Position numbers and translations under genes: made by a program. DNA of 58,413 bases from Bacilli bacterium. GTDB lineage: Bacteria; Bacillota_I; Bacilli_A; RF39; UBA660. Positions 4,655 to 44,734 of this stretch are shown one piece after another (within the stretch, counting starts at the first letter, position 1; each line of letters opens with the position of its first letter). The notes under the pieces were generated by a model that made no database searches, was not told where the DNA came from, and was given only the letters and a program-made list of their open reading frames with translations. Where the stretch lies: NCBI GenBank assembly GCA_035388245.1, contig DAOOPL010000001.1:1-58413 (forward strand), read 5' to 3'.

Positions 4655-7282
4655 ATGACAAAATACGTTTATGCTTTTGAAGAAGGCAAGAAAGAAATGA
4701 AAAATTTACTTGGAGGTAAAGGGGCTAATTTAGCAGAAATGACTAATATTGGACTTCCAGTTCCAAGAGGATTTACCGTAACAACAGAAGCTTGTATTAA
4801 ATATTATGATGATAAAAATAAAATATCTAGTGAAATAGAAGATGAAATATTTAGTAAACTTTCTGAGTTAGAAGAAAAAACAGGTAAGAAATTAGGAGAT
4901 TATTCTAATCCACTTTTAGTATCAGTTAGAAGTGGTGCTAGAGCATCTATGCCAGGAATGATGGATACAGTACTTAATTTAGGATTAAATGATAAAGTAG
5001 TTGAAGGATTTGCAGAAGCTACTAATAATCCTAGATTTGCATATGATTCATATAGAAGATTTATACAAATGTTTGCAGATGTTGTTATGGGATTCCCAAA
5101 ATCATCATTTGAAAGATATTTTGATAAAATTAAAGAAGAAAAAAAAGTAGCAAGTGATGTTGAATTATCAGCAGATGATATGAAAGAAGTAACTGCTAAA
5201 TTTAAAGCAAATTATAAAGAATTATCAGGAGAAGATTTTCCACAAGAACCTAAAGTTCAACTAATGGAAGCAGTAAAAGCAGTATTTAGATCTTGGATGA
5301 ATGATAGAGCAATCACATATCGTAGATTAAATGATATACCAGGAGATTGGGGTACAGCAGTAAATGTACAAGAAATGGTATATGGTAATAGAGGTAATAA
5401 CTGTGGTACAGGTGTTGCATTTACTCGTAATCCATCTACAGGAGAAAAGAAATTATATGGTGAGTACTTAATTAATGCACAAGGTGAAGATGTAGTTGCA
5501 GGTATTCGTACTCCTCCAACAATAGATACTTTAAAAGATGAAATGCCTGAAGTATATAAAGAGTTTAAAGCTATTGCAGACAAATTAGAAAATCACTATA
5601 AAGATATGCAAGATATGGAGTTTACTATTGAGTCTGGCAAGTTATTTATGTTACAGACTAGAAATGGTAAAAGAACAGCACAAGCAGCTCTTAAAATAGC
5701 AGTAGATTTAGTTAATGAAGGAATGCTTACTAAAGAAGAAGCATTACTTAAAGTAGAACCAAGACAATTAGATCAATTATTACATCCAATGTTTGATACA
5801 AAGAGTTTAAAAGAGGGGAAAGTAATAGCTAAAGGATTAGCAGCATCACCAGGTGCTGCAACTGGTAAGATTTATTTTACAGCAGAAGATGTAGTTAATG
5901 CTAAGAAGAGTGGTGAAAAAGAAATACTTCTTGTTAGACTTGAAACATCTCCAGAAGATATTGAAGGAATGAATGATGCATCTGGAATACTTACTATTCG
6001 TGGTGGTATGACATCTCATGCAGCAGTTGTAGCTTGTGGTATGGGTAGATGCTGTGTAAGTGGATGTGGTGAATTAAAAATAGATGAAGAAAAGAAAATA
6101 TTAACTACAAAAGATGGTAATACATATAAAGAAGGAGACTTCTTATCACTTGATGGTTCAACTGGTTGTGTATATGGGGAAAAAATAAAGACAGTAGAAC
6201 CAGAAATTAGTGGAGACTTTGAAACATTTATGAGTTGGGCAGATAGTATGAGAACTCTTAAAGTAAGAGCTAATGCTGATACTCCAAAAGATGCAAAACA
6301 AGCAAGAATGTATGGAGCAGAAGGTATTGGACTTTGTCGTACAGAGCATATGTTCTTTGAAGAAGATAGAATATTTGCAATGCGTCAAATGATTACAGCA
6401 GAAACAGTAGAGCAAAGAGAAAAAGCACTTGATAAGATATTACCAATGCAAAGAGGAGATTTTGAAGAACTATTCAAAGCAATGGAAGGATTCCCAGTAA
6501 CAATTCGTTATTTAGATCCACCATTACATGAATTTTTACCACATACTGATGAAGAGATTAAACCACTTGCAAAAGAATTAGGGATGACTTTTGAAGATTT
6601 AAAATCAAGAATACTTTCGTTAGCAGAATTTAACCCAATGATGGGTCATAGAGGTTGTCGTCTTGCTGTTACATATCCAGAAATAGCAAGAATGCAAACA
6701 AGAGCAGTAATAGAAGCAGCTATTAATGTTAATAAAGAAGGATTAAATGTAATACCAGAAATAATGATACCTCTAGTAGGAGAAATAAAAGAATTAAAAT
6801 ATGTTAAAGATATAGTTGTTGAAACTGCAGGTAAAATAATTAAGGATAACAATGTAAAATTAGAATATCATGTAGGTACTATGATTGAAATACCAAGAGC
6901 AGCAATAACAGCAGATGAAATAGCAAAAGAAGCAGAATTCTTCAGTTTTGGTACTAATGATTTAACTCAAATGACATATGGATTTTCAAGAGATGATGCA
7001 GGCAAGTTCTTATCTGATTACTATGATAAAGGAATCTTTGAATCAGATCCATTTGCTAAGTTAGATCAAATAGGTGTAGGTTCGCTAATAAAAATAGCAG
7101 TTGAAAAAGGAAGAGAAACAAGAAAAAATATTAAACTTGGTATTTGTGGAGAACACGGAGGAGAACCATCTTCAATAGAGTTTTGTCATAAAGCAGGTTT
7201 AAATTATGTGTCTTGCTCTCCATTTAGAGTACCAATTGCTAGACTAGCAGCAGCTCAAGCTAAAATAAATGAGAGTAAATAA
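4655..7282 (+). CDS. ppdK: pyruvate, phosphate dikinase
   Basis: 875 aa. N-terminal LLGGKGANLAEM ATP-grasp motif, phospho-His motif GGMTSHAAVVA, C-terminal PEP-utilising motifs NDLTQ and GICGEHGGEP. Confidence 0.95.
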   Translation: MTKYVYAFEEGKKEMKNLLGGKGANLAEMTNIGLPVPRGFTVTTEACIKYYDDKNKISSEIEDEIFSKLSELEEKTGKKLGDYSNPLLVSVRSGARASMPGMMDTVLNLGLNDKVVEGFAEATNNPRFAYDSYRRFIQMFADVVMGFPKSSFERYFDKIKEEKKVASDVELSADDMKEVTAKFKANYKELSGEDFPQEPKVQLMEAVKAVFRSWMNDRAITYRRLNDIPGDWGTAVNVQEMVYGNRGNNCGTGVAFTRNPSTGEKKLYGEYLINAQGEDVVAGIRTPPTIDTLKDEMPEVYKEFKAIADKLENHYKDMQDMEFTIESGKLFMLQTRNGKRTAQAALKIAVDLVNEGMLTKEEALLKVEPRQLDQLLHPMFDTKSLKEGKVIAKGLAASPGAATGKIYFTAEDVVNAKKSGEKEILLVRLETSPEDIEGMNDASGILTIRGGMTSHAAVVACGMGRCCVSGCGELKIDEEKKILTTKDGNTYKEGDFLSLDGSTGCVYGEKIKTVEPEISGDFETFMSWADSMRTLKVRANADTPKDAKQARMYGAEGIGLCRTEHMFFEEDRIFAMRQMITAETVEQREKALDKILPMQRGDFEELFKAMEGFPVTIRYLDPPLHEFLPHTDEEIKPLAKELGMTFEDLKSRILSLAEFNPMMGHRGCRLAVTYPEIARMQTRAVIEAAINVNKEGLNVIPEIMIPLVGEIKELKYVKDIVVETAGKIIKDNNVKLEYHVGTMIEIPRAAITADEIAKEAEFFSFGTNDLTQMTYGFSRDDAGKFLSDYYDKGIFESDPFAKLDQIGVGSLIKIAVEKGRETRKNIKLGICGEHGGEPSSIEFCHKAGLNYVSCSPFRVPIARLAAAQAKINESK

Positions 7283-37526: not shown

Positions 37527-37555
37527 TTGACAATAAGCCAATAAATTGTTATATT
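37527..37555 (+). promoter_or_regulatory. sigma-70-type promoter of the tRNA operon
   Basis: TTGACA, 17 nt spacer, TATATT, about 20 nt before tRNA-Val. Confidence 0.55.
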
Positions 37556-37651: not shown

Positions 37652-37693
37652 TTTTATGCCGAAATAGCTCAATTGGTAGAGCAACTGACTTGT

Positions 37694-38342
37694 GGGATAG
37701 AAATTATTTATTTATAAATAATACTTGAACTATCTTGCACCTCTATAAAGAAATTTATAGAGTGGATGGCACTAATTCGGGGAAACCTTAACAGATAAGG
37801 CTGATGGCAATCCCGAGCAAGACATTACGGAGGATTTATGACAACAAAGCAAGTAGGTGCAATTGGTGAGGCATATGCAAAATACCATCTTACAAAATTA
37901 GGATATAATATATTTAGTCCTGATGTTGAAGATAGTGAGTATGATTTTATTGCTGTTCGTGAAGGTGTTTTTATACCTATACAGGTTAAAACAACACAAA
38001 GAGTAATAAATAATACTATGGTATTTGATTTTCGCAAGACAAGGTCCAATACAAAAGTAAATATTGCGAAAAAATATGACCAAAATATTGTATTTGTACT
38101 TGTATGTTTGGAAAACATGTATATTGGATGTATAATATCATCGCAATCATGTTTAAAAATAAGATTGGATTCTTCCAAAACTATTAACCAATATAATCCG
38201 AATTTTTCAGAAAATTATATATTAACTGAAAAAAAACTAATGTCGTGTGTAGAGACTTTATATGCCGCACCTAAGTCGTAAGATAAGGTGAAGAGAAAGT
38301 CCAGACCACAAACGAATAGGTAGTGAAAACTATAGTGGTATG
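37694..38342 (+). mobile_element. group I intron (Azoarcus/IC3-like core) carrying a homing endonuclease ORF
   Basis: The 5' exon ends in U, which is paired to G in P1 (TGT|GGGATAG with CTATCTTGCA). The intron ends in G. Core matches to the Azoarcus tRNA-Ile intron: AATTCGGGGAAACCTTAAC..GATGGCAATCCCGAGCAAG and GTGTAGAGACT..GCCGCACCTAAG..CTATAGTGGTATG. Confidence 0.8.
37838..38281 (+). CDS. intron-encoded PD-(D/E)XK-type homing endonuclease candidate (I-Ssp6803I-like)
   Basis: RBS GGAGG. 147 aa. GAIGEAYAKYHLTKLGYNIFSPDVEDSEYDFIAVREGVFIPIQVKT fits a D..(D/E)-x-K nuclease core. The 3' end of the ORF runs into the intron core (P7 region). Confidence 0.6.
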   Translation: MTTKQVGAIGEAYAKYHLTKLGYNIFSPDVEDSEYDFIAVREGVFIPIQVKTTQRVINNTMVFDFRKTRSNTKVNIAKKYDQNIVFVLVCLENMYIGCIISSQSCLKIRLDSSKTINQYNPNFSENYILTEKKLMSCVETLYAAPKS

Positions 38343-38419
38343 AATCAGTAGGTTACGGGTTCAAGTCCTGTTTTCGGCACCATGGGGAGATAGCGAAGTG
38401 GCTAAACGCGGCAGACTGT

Positions 38420-39038
38420 AGACAAATGCAGCTTCTATAAGTAATTATAGAATGAAAACTTAGCTAATTCGGGGAAACCTTAACAGATAATGCTGATGGC
38501 AATCCCGAGCAAGGAGGATGAATGACATATAGACATCAAGGTGAAATTGGTGTTCAAAAAGCGATATTTGAATTGATGAAACGAGATATTAGGGTCTATA
38601 TGCCATTAGTAGATGATGGTGTTGATATATTAGTAGAATATAATAAAAAGTATTATAAAATACAATGTAAGACATCAAAATTTACACCAAAATCAAAAAA
38701 TTGTGTTGTTTTCGATTTAACGAAAACATATCACAATAATTCTAAAATCAGTGTAAAAAAGTATTTACCTACAGAAGTAGACTATTTCTTTCTTTATTCT
38801 GATTTATATGAAGATTATCCATGTCTTGTAACTTATAACAGAGTTGCAGGGCAAAGAACTTTTAATATTGATTTTTCTAACACAAAAAGGCATCCGTTAA
38901 AAAATCATTATAAAGAGTTTAATATTGATAATCATTTTAGCCTCCGTGTGTAGAGACTTTATACTAAGTACCTAATAAGGTAAAGAGAAAGTCCAGACCA
39001 CAAACAATAAGTTGGTAGTGAAAACTATAGTGGTAAAG
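38420..39038 (+). mobile_element. group I intron, paralog of the tRNA-Thr intron, carrying a homing endonuclease ORF
   Basis: Exon CTGT pairs with GCAG (U.G at the splice site) and the intron ends in G. Shares CTAATTCGGGGAAACCTTAACAGATAA.GCTGATGGCAATCCCGAGCAAG and GAGAAAGTCCAGACCACAAAC..GTAGTGAAAACTATAGTGGTA with the first intron. The exact junction is ambiguous by 1 nt because of flanking A residues. Confidence 0.75.
38522..38953 (+). CDS. intron-encoded PD-(D/E)XK-type homing endonuclease candidate
   Basis: RBS AGGAGG. 143 aa. GEIGVQKAIFELMKRDIRVYMPLVDDGVDILVEYNKKYYKIQCKT parallels the first intron ORF. Confidence 0.6.
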   Translation: MTYRHQGEIGVQKAIFELMKRDIRVYMPLVDDGVDILVEYNKKYYKIQCKTSKFTPKSKNCVVFDLTKTYHNNSKISVKKYLPTEVDYFFLYSDLYEDYPCLVTYNRVAGQRTFNIDFSNTKRHPLKNHYKEFNIDNHFSLRV

Positions 39039-39095
39039 AAATCTGTTCCTTCGGGTTCGGTGGTTCGAATCCACCTCTCCCCACCACTTTGATAT

Positions 39096-39263: not shown

Positions 39264-39352
39264 GCCCGAGTGGCGGAATAGGTAGACGCACAGGACTTAA
39301 AATCCTGCGAGATTTAACCCTCGTACCGGTTCAAGTCCGGTCTCGGGCACCA
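39264..39352 (+). tRNA. tRNA-Leu (UAA)
   Basis: Acceptor GCCCGAG/CTCGGGC, loop CTTAAAA, long variable arm, CCA. Confidence 0.9.
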
Positions 39353-44575: not shown

Positions 44576-44616
44576 TAAGTATAGGTAAGAAAAAATAAAG
44601 TGAAGATCTCGAACCA

Positions 44617-44646
44617 CTGAAGACTAGCCGAAAGGCTAGTCATTTT
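44617..44646 (+). repeat. 30-nt exact repeat, copy 2 (terminator hairpin)
   Basis: ctgaagactagccgaaaggctagtcatttt. Confidence 0.85.
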
Positions 44647-44734
44647 GTTTTATAAGGTTTACAAACCAGAAAACAAATTTTTATAAATTTATAAACAAAA
44701 AAGTATTTATGCTATACTATAATTGGTGATAAAT

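Follow-up and report, generated by a model that had tools for sequence, protein, structure and literature searches.

By default annotation, two tRNA genes seem to be absent from a tRNA operon of an uncultured member of the Bacilli (GenBank assembly GCA_035388245.1, contig DAOOPL010000001.1; the whole stretch of 58,413 nt that was analysed is referred to as the window). The GC content of the contig is 26%. The operon is located 3' of NifU and S1 genes, with the gene order Val-Thr-Tyr-Gln-Lys-Leu-Ser-Met. Using ARAGORN in default mode and the Rfam tRNA model, the genes for Val, Gln, Lys, Leu, Ser, and Met were called; tRNA-Thr and tRNA-Tyr were missed by both, leaving a gap of 1.4 kb between the Val and Gln genes. 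When ARAGORN was run on the genomic DNA in intron mode, this gap was filled by tRNA-Thr(UGU) at 37658-38382 and tRNA-Tyr(GUA) at 38384-39086, with introns of 649 nt and 619 nt, respectively. These insertions are very probably mobile group I introns of the IC3 type, each with a homing endonuclease of the I-Ssp6803I family. The two-intron arrangement recurs in at least five independent metagenome assemblies (JGI and ENA) and is therefore not an assembly artefact.

All features of the locus described below are encoded on the forward strand. The 5' exon of tRNA-Thr(UGU) (37658-37693) ends with U36 and is followed by the intron (37694-38342) and by a 3' exon with an encoded CCA end (38343-38382). 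In tRNA-Tyr(GUA), the 5' exon (38384-38419) ends with U35 within the anticodon, the intron covers 38420-39038, and the 3' exon (39039-39086) includes a long variable arm and an encoded CCA end. Joining of the exons in silico resulted in a 76-nt tRNA-Thr(UGU) and an 84-nt tRNA-Tyr(GUA), both of which were folded by ARAGORN into normal cloverleafs. The split genes proposed by the first-pass annotation were thus recovered both from the spliced sequences and in intron mode. The exon borders were further assessed by comparison with intronless alleles of related metagenome-assembled genomes (MAGs; related loci are designated by L numbers). The intronless tRNA-Thr of L126 is identical to the predicted spliced product at 70 of 76 positions and collinear with it across the junction, its sequence around the insertion point being AGCAACTGACTTGT^AATCAGTAGGTT. 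Likewise, the intronless tRNA-Tyr of L128 and L038 is collinear across the junction, with 81/84 identical positions; in L128 the insertion point reads ACGCGGCAGACTGT^AAATCTGTTCCTTC. Differences between the exons and the intronless allele are compensated in the T-stem of tRNA-Thr, the only stem compared.

The junctions are ACUUGU|...G|AAUCAG in tRNA-Thr, directly 3' of U36, and GACUGU|...G|AAAUCU in tRNA-Tyr, directly 3' of U35 and inside the anticodon. In the Thr intron, helix P1 is formed by the exon sequence UGU (37691-37693) and the internal guide GCA (37737-37739), includes a U.G wobble, and is continued by a 7-bp extension within the intron (37694-700/37730-36). In the Tyr intron, P1 consists of the exon sequence CUGU (38416-38419) and the guide GCAG (38428-38431), again with a U.G wobble. 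The guides GCA and GCAG are also present in the orthologous introns. Both introns terminate with a G (omega-G; 38342 in Thr and 39038 in Tyr), so that insertion after a wobble-forming U and a terminal G, as noted before, were confirmed at both sites. The 5-nt context TGT|AA and the guide core GCA are common to the Thr and Tyr insertion sites.

The remaining helices, P2 to P9, were derived by hand from the sequence. In the Thr intron these are P2 (37741-49/37754-62, closed by a GAAA loop), P3 (37767-71/38263-67), P4 (37777-82/37811-16), P5 (37786-87/37806-07), P5a (37792-94/37801-03), P6 (37821-27/38238-44), P7 (38252-57/38298-302), P8 (38268-72/38286-90), P9 (38305-09/38335-39), and P9a (38320-24/38329-33, GAAA loop). 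The corresponding elements of the Tyr intron are P2 (38433-40/38445-52, GUAA loop), P3 (38459-63/38964-68), P4 (38469-74/38503-08), P5 (38478-79/38498-99), P5a (38484-86/38493-95), P6 (38513-17/38941-45), P7 (38953-58/38990-94), P8 (38969-73/38978-82), P9 (38997-39001/39030-34), and P9a (39015-19/39024-28, GAAA loop). Minimum free energy (MFE) folding recovered P1, P2, P4 to P6, P8, and P9a, and in folds of the full-length introns the long-range P6 was retained across the open reading frame (ORF) in both the MFE and the centroid structure. P7 has the sequence G(A)GACU/AGUCC in both introns, with a G-C pair beside the bulged A. Loops of the GNRA type were found at L2 (GAAA in Thr, GUAA in Tyr) and at L9 (GAAA in both). 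In the Thr intron, P8 contains CCUAAG...UAAGG, a sequence similar to the 11-nt receptor, and P8 of the Tyr intron is a minimal hairpin; P5 is a variant form, as judged from its sequence. Long blocks common to the two introns, reported earlier, were verified: 49 nt with one mismatch (CTAATTCGGGG...CCCGAGCAA), 31 nt with one mismatch (ATAAGGTrAAGAGAAAGTCCAGACCACAAAC), CGTGTGTAGAGACTTTATA with 19/19 identical positions, and GGTAGTGAAAACTATAGTGGTA with 22/22.

Covariation was evaluated by pair counts on a MAFFT alignment of 23 introns from which the ORFs had been deleted; the alignment was not re-fitted to the structure in order to avoid circularity. The proposed pairs were formed in 87.3% of the cells, compared to 30-43% when the partners were slid. 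Changes on both sides were observed in 36 of 58 pairs, and none of 500 shuffles reached the observed values. Between the two introns of the window, P3 is compensatory throughout (UGGCA/UGCCG versus CUUAG/CUAAG), and in the alignment it covaries in five of its six pairs. P8, P9, and P9a covary as well, and no changes occur in P4, P5, or P7. Lower scores were obtained for P2 and P6 because MAFFT misaligns stems that differ in length. Taken as pair statistics, these counts support the predicted helices P2 to P9, including the P3/P7 pseudoknot.

Independent evidence was obtained with two covariance half-models, R1 for the 5' domain and R2 for the 3' domain, which were split at P6. Both were trained on seven Rfam-validated tRNA introns from other phyla, with window and Firmicutes sequences excluded. 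R1 matched the window at 37727-37818 (51.2 bits, Thr) and 38423-38510 (55.2 bits, Tyr), and there was no further R1 match anywhere in the window. R2 matched at 38247-38342 (94.2 bits, Thr), ending exactly with the predicted terminal G, and at 38948-39037 (81.2 bits, Tyr). Two additional R2 matches, at 5444-5545 (15 bits, E value 0.015) and 44600-44647 (10 bits, E value 0.6), were taken as chance. The coincidence of all features at their respective positions, with half-model E values of 1e-10 to 1e-26 at the two introns and at least five assemblies, is far beyond chance.

Other classes of intervening sequences were tried and rejected. An archaeal or eukaryal tRNA intron spliced by proteins at a bulge-helix-bulge motif was ruled out because the insertions exceed 600 nt and contain a complete group I core, and because the host is a bacterium. 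A group II intron was ruled out, as neither a reverse-transcriptase ORF nor a group II family in the Rfam scans was found in the insertions. The same applies to an IStron: there is no transposase of the IS200/605 type, and the sole ORF is a protein of 143-147 amino acids (aa) assigned to PF11645.

The Thr intron encodes a predicted endonuclease of 147 aa (37838-38281) and the Tyr intron one of 143 aa (38522-38953). Both ORFs are preceded by a Shine-Dalgarno (SD) sequence GGAGG (37829-37833 and 38513-17, respectively) located 4 nt 5' of the ATG. Both exceeded the gathering score of Pfam PF11645 (PDDEXK_5; 26.1 bits), with 53.0 bits and E 4.7e-14 for Thr and 50.8 bits and E 2.3e-13 for Tyr. The only sequence match in the PDB was 2OST, which is I-Ssp6803I (E 1e-4 for the Thr ORF and 0.06 for the Tyr ORF). 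D36, Q49, and K51 of the Thr protein and D35, Q48, and K50 of the Tyr protein align with YD...QVK of 2OST, so that both ORFs contain the predicted catalytic-core motif D...(E/Q)xK on strands beta2/beta3. All of the 26 family members compared have G7, D36, and K51, and at least 90% of them have Q49, P28, and Y80; the ORFs of the window keep all of these residues. In a Foldseek search with a model of the Thr endonuclease, the top four matches were chains of 2OST (E 6e-5 to 2e-4, template modelling score 0.41-0.55); EcoRV, Hjc, and SPARDA nucleases ranked next. In NCBIfam, YraN-like matches to the Thr ORF were weak and below the threshold, and the Tyr ORF gave no match. The name 'group I intron-associated PD-(D/E)XK endonuclease' is already attached to both proteins at NCBI. 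The central proposal of the first-pass annotation, paralogous group I introns with PD-(D/E)XK endonucleases in adjacent tRNA genes, each ORF having its own ribosome-binding site and resembling I-Ssp6803I, was borne out by half-models, covariation, and PF11645.

An exhaustive search of 1.84 billion representative sequences yielded 171 clusters (50% identity) at an E value of 1e-3 or lower and 8 clusters at 1e-10 or lower. By these counts the relatives within PF11645 form a small family, in which the two enzymes belong to rare subfamilies. The Thr and Tyr endonucleases share approximately 31% identity over 81 residues, and orthologs of each were found at 64-80% identity (those of the Tyr ORF include P0006-P0008). 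Three near, non-orthologous relatives are free-standing PF11645 ORFs between tRNA genes (L130 1501-1905, L134 1501-1932, and L132 1501-1980), and no group I core motifs were found near them. One of these ORFs is situated directly 3' of tRNA-Thr(UGU) in an array of 11 tRNA genes, one lies beside a phage integrase, and the third is part of an array of 21 tRNA genes that also includes an HNH ORF and a Ro60/TROVE gene. The PF11645 family thus occurs in tRNA clusters in intron-borne as well as free-standing form.

A motif scan with one genome per species resulted in at least 120 loci. In at least 76 of them, among the matches listed, the motif falls within an intron that interrupts a tRNA gene, as called by ARAGORN; the host tRNAs in this list are mainly Leu-UAA, and also Ile/Met-CAU, Arg-CCU, Pro, Thr, Tyr, Gln, Phe, Lys, and Ala. 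Orthologs at the same sites that are devoid of an ORF were found in tRNA-Thr(UGU) of the Bacilli MAG L038 (231 nt) and in tRNA-Tyr(GUA) of the Clostridia MAGs L028, L076, and L085 (223 nt). The Val-Thr-Tyr-Gln-Lys-Leu-Ser-Met array 3' of NifU and S1 is conserved in related MAGs, and its intron content varies between four states. In the window, both introns carry an endonuclease. L126 and L127 have an intronless tRNA-Thr and a Tyr intron with endonuclease; L128 has a Thr intron with a frameshifted ORF and an intronless tRNA-Tyr; L038 has the ORF-less Thr intron and an intronless tRNA-Tyr. The frameshift of L128 is located in an A-run and may be a sequencing error. Such variation in intron presence at both sites is in keeping with homing and subsequent decay, and the comparison of these alleles supports homing that is ongoing or recent at each site.

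The splicing pathway was inferred from the predicted structure. The operon would be transcribed as a precursor, in which each intron folds into a P1-P9 ribozyme. The 5' splice site would be set by the U.G wobble in P1 (U36 in Thr, U35 in Tyr), where an external guanosine attacks; the terminal G would then enter the G-binding site in P7, and ligation of the exons would restore the anticodon loop. The target of the I-Ssp6803I family has been described as pseudo-palindromic anticodon stem-loop DNA (PMC3384342). By analogy, the endonucleases would cut the intronless alleles of tRNA-Thr and tRNA-Tyr at this DNA, and repair of the cut allele would copy the intron in. The related genomes would then have been caught at different stages of the homing cycle.

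Several results weigh against this interpretation. With the Rfam model Intron_gpI (RF00028), no intron match was obtained in the window at the gathering score of 50 bits, which is an operational detection criterion and not a structural definition. In permissive mode the two introns scored 16.8 and 11.5 bits. The first-pass annotation had counted a failure of the Rfam model against its own proposal and, formally, this is what was found. The two ORF-less orthologs that were scored also remained below the gathering score (27.3 bits for L038 and 40 bits for L028); their alignments to RF00028 are full-length, with E values of 3.7e-5 and 5.4e-9, respectively. On the protein side, the PF11645 alignment spans only residues 1-90 of approximately 145, and the Tyr endonuclease is without the helix-1 glutamate at its usual position, with E8 in place of the E11 found in most members. 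For the Thr endonuclease, the AlphaFold model, based on an alignment of seven sequences, has a mean predicted local distance difference test (pLDDT) value of 51, with only residues 1-55 at about 70-78; owing to this poor model, the fold match weighs little beyond the N-terminal core. The shortfall with RF00028 is attributed to the ORF of about 400 nt inside P6 and to the AT-rich periphery of the window introns. ORF-less relatives have a short P6 hairpin at exactly the place of this ORF, and RF00028 was passed, at 53-79 bits, by seven of the 23 aligned introns and by the Rhodocyclaceae intron L073 of the tRNA-Ile type, which is outside the alignment.

The low RF00028 scores would also be expected if the two tRNA genes were pseudogenes, killed by a decayed intron-like element that no longer splices, with working copies of tRNA-Thr(UGU) and tRNA-Tyr elsewhere; since 58 kb of the genome is in view, such copies are possible. 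This explanation is nevertheless very improbable. Both introns keep all core positions that are invariant in the 23 related introns, and their 3' domains reach 94 and 81 bits. The exons are intact, and their differences to the intronless alleles are mainly compensated stem changes (as compared in the Thr T-stem). Even with a frameshifted ORF (L128) or no ORF at all (L038), relatives have kept the ribozyme core, as would be expected under selection for splicing.

The state of the ORFs has to be weighed separately. It is unlikely, to a lesser degree than the pseudogene explanation, that the introns splice and are immobile, with ORFs that are relics or serve another role, for example as a maturase. 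One relative with a frameshifted ORF, others that have lost it, and C-terminal halves that are poorly modelled and outside the Pfam alignment would be in line with such a loss of mobility. Both ORFs of the window are, however, of full length with conserved D, Q, and K residues, orthologs have been retained at 64-80% identity, and the variable occupancy of both sites in close relatives agrees with homing that is active or was so recently. PF11645 proteins are not known to have maturase activity. Mobile introns with homing endonucleases are thus the preferred reading at both sites.

The relationship of the two introns to each other was analysed by neighbour-joining on the core columns with 200 bootstraps. 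The Thr intron of the window clusters with other Thr introns (76% bootstrap support) and the Tyr intron with other Tyr introns (60%); the two were sisters in 0/200 bootstraps. The almost identical core blocks, together with the shared TGT|AA context and GCA guide, which would permit a past site switch by reverse splicing or relaxed cleavage, could be taken to indicate a recent transposition between the neighbouring tRNA genes within this genome. Such an event is highly improbable, even more so than the pseudogene explanation: core identity between the Thr and Tyr introns of the window is 75%, lower than the 80-86% between this Thr intron and Thr introns of other MAGs and the 78-83% between this Tyr intron and Tyr introns of other genomes, and the near-identical blocks are conserved clade-wide, including tRNA-Leu introns. 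From the absence of sister grouping and from the endonuclease identity of approximately 31%, compared to 64-80% among orthologs, it is concluded that the two introns did not arise by a recent local duplication and represent old sister lineages, each of which is site-specific and also occurs in other Firmicutes. The earlier suggestion of recent homing or spread between tRNA genes therefore held for homing at each site and was not upheld for spread from one tRNA gene to the other. An ancient switch of sites could plausibly have proceeded via the shared TGT|AA context and guide GCA.

Further observations concern the choice of sites. Introns have entered tRNA-Thr(UGU) at different positions: in L037 (Patescibacteria) the intron is located 5' of the anticodon (...CCCU|UGUAAGG), and in the window, L038, L128, and L129 (JGI 3300040801) it follows U36. 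L129 carries a PF11645 ORF with 38% identity in a quite different tRNA-Thr(UGU). The tRNA-Leu(UAA) gene of the window (39264-39352) is without an intron; in other genomes, other Bacilli MAGs included, introns of this family interrupt this gene more often than any other. A putative promoter of the tRNA operon was located at 37527-37555, about 20 nt 5' of tRNA-Val (TTGACA, a spacer of 17 nt, and TG-TATATT). It matches 11 of 12 consensus positions and has an extended -10 element; its assignment is a consensus match only.

Both ORFs are located in the P6 loop, and the ways in which they are interlocked with the ribozyme differ in detail. In the Thr intron, P6 is formed by GACAUUA/UAAUGUC, and the SD sequence GGAGG follows two nucleotides further 3'. 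The last approximately 14 codons of the Thr ORF run through P6', J6/7, P7, P3', and the 5' strand of P8, and encode the tail CVETLYAAPKS, of which CVETL is specified by UGU GUA GAG ACU UUA. Since the tail CVETL...PKS recurs in distant homologs, it marks intron-borne members. In the Tyr intron, the SD sequence GGAGG (38513-17) itself is the 5' strand of P6, its partner CCUCC (38941-45) being located about 420 nt further 3'; the stop codon of the ORF is the UAG of J6/7-P7. In the ortholog L126, the pairing between SD and P6 is lengthened to 8 bp. Owing to this overlap, with P6 around the ORF and the ORF 3' ends reaching into J6/7-P7, folding of the ribozyme and translation of the endonuclease are probably mutually exclusive. 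Sequestration of the ribosome-binding site of an intron endonuclease ORF by intron structure has been described as a general principle (PMC3984707).

It is possible, at a tentative level clearly below that of the preferred reading, that the overlap constitutes a built-in switch between folding and translation and that an ancient switch between the Thr and Tyr sites took place as well. If so, the folded ribozyme would silence its own endonuclease, and a translating ribosome would unfold P6 and P7 and block maturation of tRNA-Tyr and tRNA-Thr(UGU). Two potentially essential tRNAs, which may be the only ones of their kind in the cell, would then link the capacity for translation to the mobility of the introns.

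Introns of closely related ribozymes in tRNA-Leu(UAA) provide a comparison for the P6 insertion. The Bacilli MAGs L021, L042, and L108 contain tRNA-Leu(UAA) introns of 677-687 nt with an ORF of the HNH type at the same position in the P6 loop. As in the window, the order is P6 5' strand, SD, ORF, and a stop codon at the P6 3' strand, and the ribozymes belong to a close clade; in contrast to the window, the endonuclease is of the HNH type, the host is tRNA-Leu, and the insertion follows U34. The HNH ORF of L108 is interrupted, and L022 (274 nt) keeps an SD-like GGAG and an apparent ORF remnant of approximately 60 nt in P6. One and the same loop, that of P6, has been occupied by different endonuclease families (PD-(D/E)XK and HNH) in ribozymes that are closely related. 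The first approximately 100 nt (P1/P2 region) of the 295-nt tRNA-Leu(UAA) intron of L088 contain an HNH-like fragment, ...CUUGUCAUUUUAUGUCCUAAUUGCCAUUCC..., comparable to LCPNCH of the L021 ORF, which suggests a putative endonuclease remnant in a different loop. In the tRNA-Leu(UAA) introns of L039, L046, and L063 (678-697 nt; Gammaproteobacteria and Pyrinomonadaceae), no ORF of 70 aa or more was found on the forward strand.

The intron core was also found in 92 predicted viral contigs (IMG/VR, L135-L226) of up to 331 kb, which may include host DNA; examples are L169 3526-5058, L219 5401-7261, L152 1276-1543, and L162 6918-7193. The split tRNAs called there by ARAGORN were Leu-UAA (47), Arg-UCU (13), Phe (5), tRNAs with UCA anticodon (3), and Thr-UGU (2), and 25 were unresolved. 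Some phage-like tRNA arrays in these contigs contain two to three split tRNAs side by side. According to a 2014 review, every phage group I intron then known was in a protein-coding gene.

Comparison with known systems places both elements of the window in established groups. The tRNA-fMet intron of Synechocystis PCC 6803 with I-Ssp6803I (2OST, PF11645) resembles the window introns in being of the IC3 type, in its location in the anticodon loop, and in its PD-(D/E)XK endonuclease of approximately 150 aa. The differences are the hosts, Thr-UGU and Tyr-GUA instead of fMet, the insertion after nt 36 and nt 35 instead of nt 33, and the origin from uncultured Bacilli instead of Cyanobacteria; the ORFs share only about 20-25% identity with 2OST, and their C-terminal halves could not be aligned by Pfam. 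The Azoarcus tRNA-Ile(CAU) IC3 intron (Ile2.5Ug) has in common with the window introns the blocks AAUUCGGnGAAACCU...AUGGCAAnnCCGAGC, GUAGAGACU, CACCUAAG, and AGUCC, which the first-pass annotation had named and which were found both in the published Ile2.5Ug seed sequence and in L073. It also has GNRA loops at L2 and L9 and is inserted directly after nt 36, as is the Thr intron. The Azoarcus intron is approximately 205 nt long and has no ORF, whereas the window introns have an ORF of 400 nt in P6 and AT-rich peripheral helices, and a variant P5 element (CCUUAACAG...CUGAUGG) instead of the canonical 11-nt receptor.

The phage T4 td intron with I-TevI offers a further parallel, having an ORF in a peripheral loop that reaches into the core and a ribosome-binding site that can be sequestered by intron structure. 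It differs from the window in its GIY-YIG endonuclease, its protein-coding host gene, and its intron subgroup, IA2.

In a survey of 80,413 bacterial genomes, 5,292 split tRNA genes were reported, and the number of settings was raised from 4 classical ones to 21 (Williams 2020, bioRxiv 10.1101/2020.01.27.920355). The seed alignment holds Tyr.4Ug and Thr.5Ug, which correspond to the introns of the window in isotype, loop position, U at -1, and 3' G; for Tyr.4Ug, the exon/guide pairing CUGU/UUGCAG is also the same as in the window Tyr intron. The core of the Tyr.4Ug seed (Mba143) differs from that of the window (GAUAACGGUGAAAGCU...), and the Thr.5Ug seed is located in a tRNA with GGU anticodon. 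Intron ORFs were not analysed in that study. In the literature searched, no paper on Firmicutes Thr/Tyr introns of this type or on their endonucleases was found. The settings and the protein names are already known, and the window locus adds a further member.

The understanding of group I introns as such is left unchanged by the locus. Its practical consequence concerns annotation: both genes are missed by default tRNA finders and by the Rfam tRNA model, and this MAG and its relatives therefore appear to be without tRNA-Tyr and tRNA-Thr(UGU), which affects quality criteria based on tRNA counts as well as inferences on codon usage and decoding. Together with its relatives, the locus provides a natural series of the predicted homing cycle at two adjacent sites, comprising empty sites and introns with intact endonuclease, with frameshifted endonuclease, and without ORF. 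The two endonucleases are new, diverged members of a small family, and their likely specificity is the DNA of the tRNA anticodon stem.

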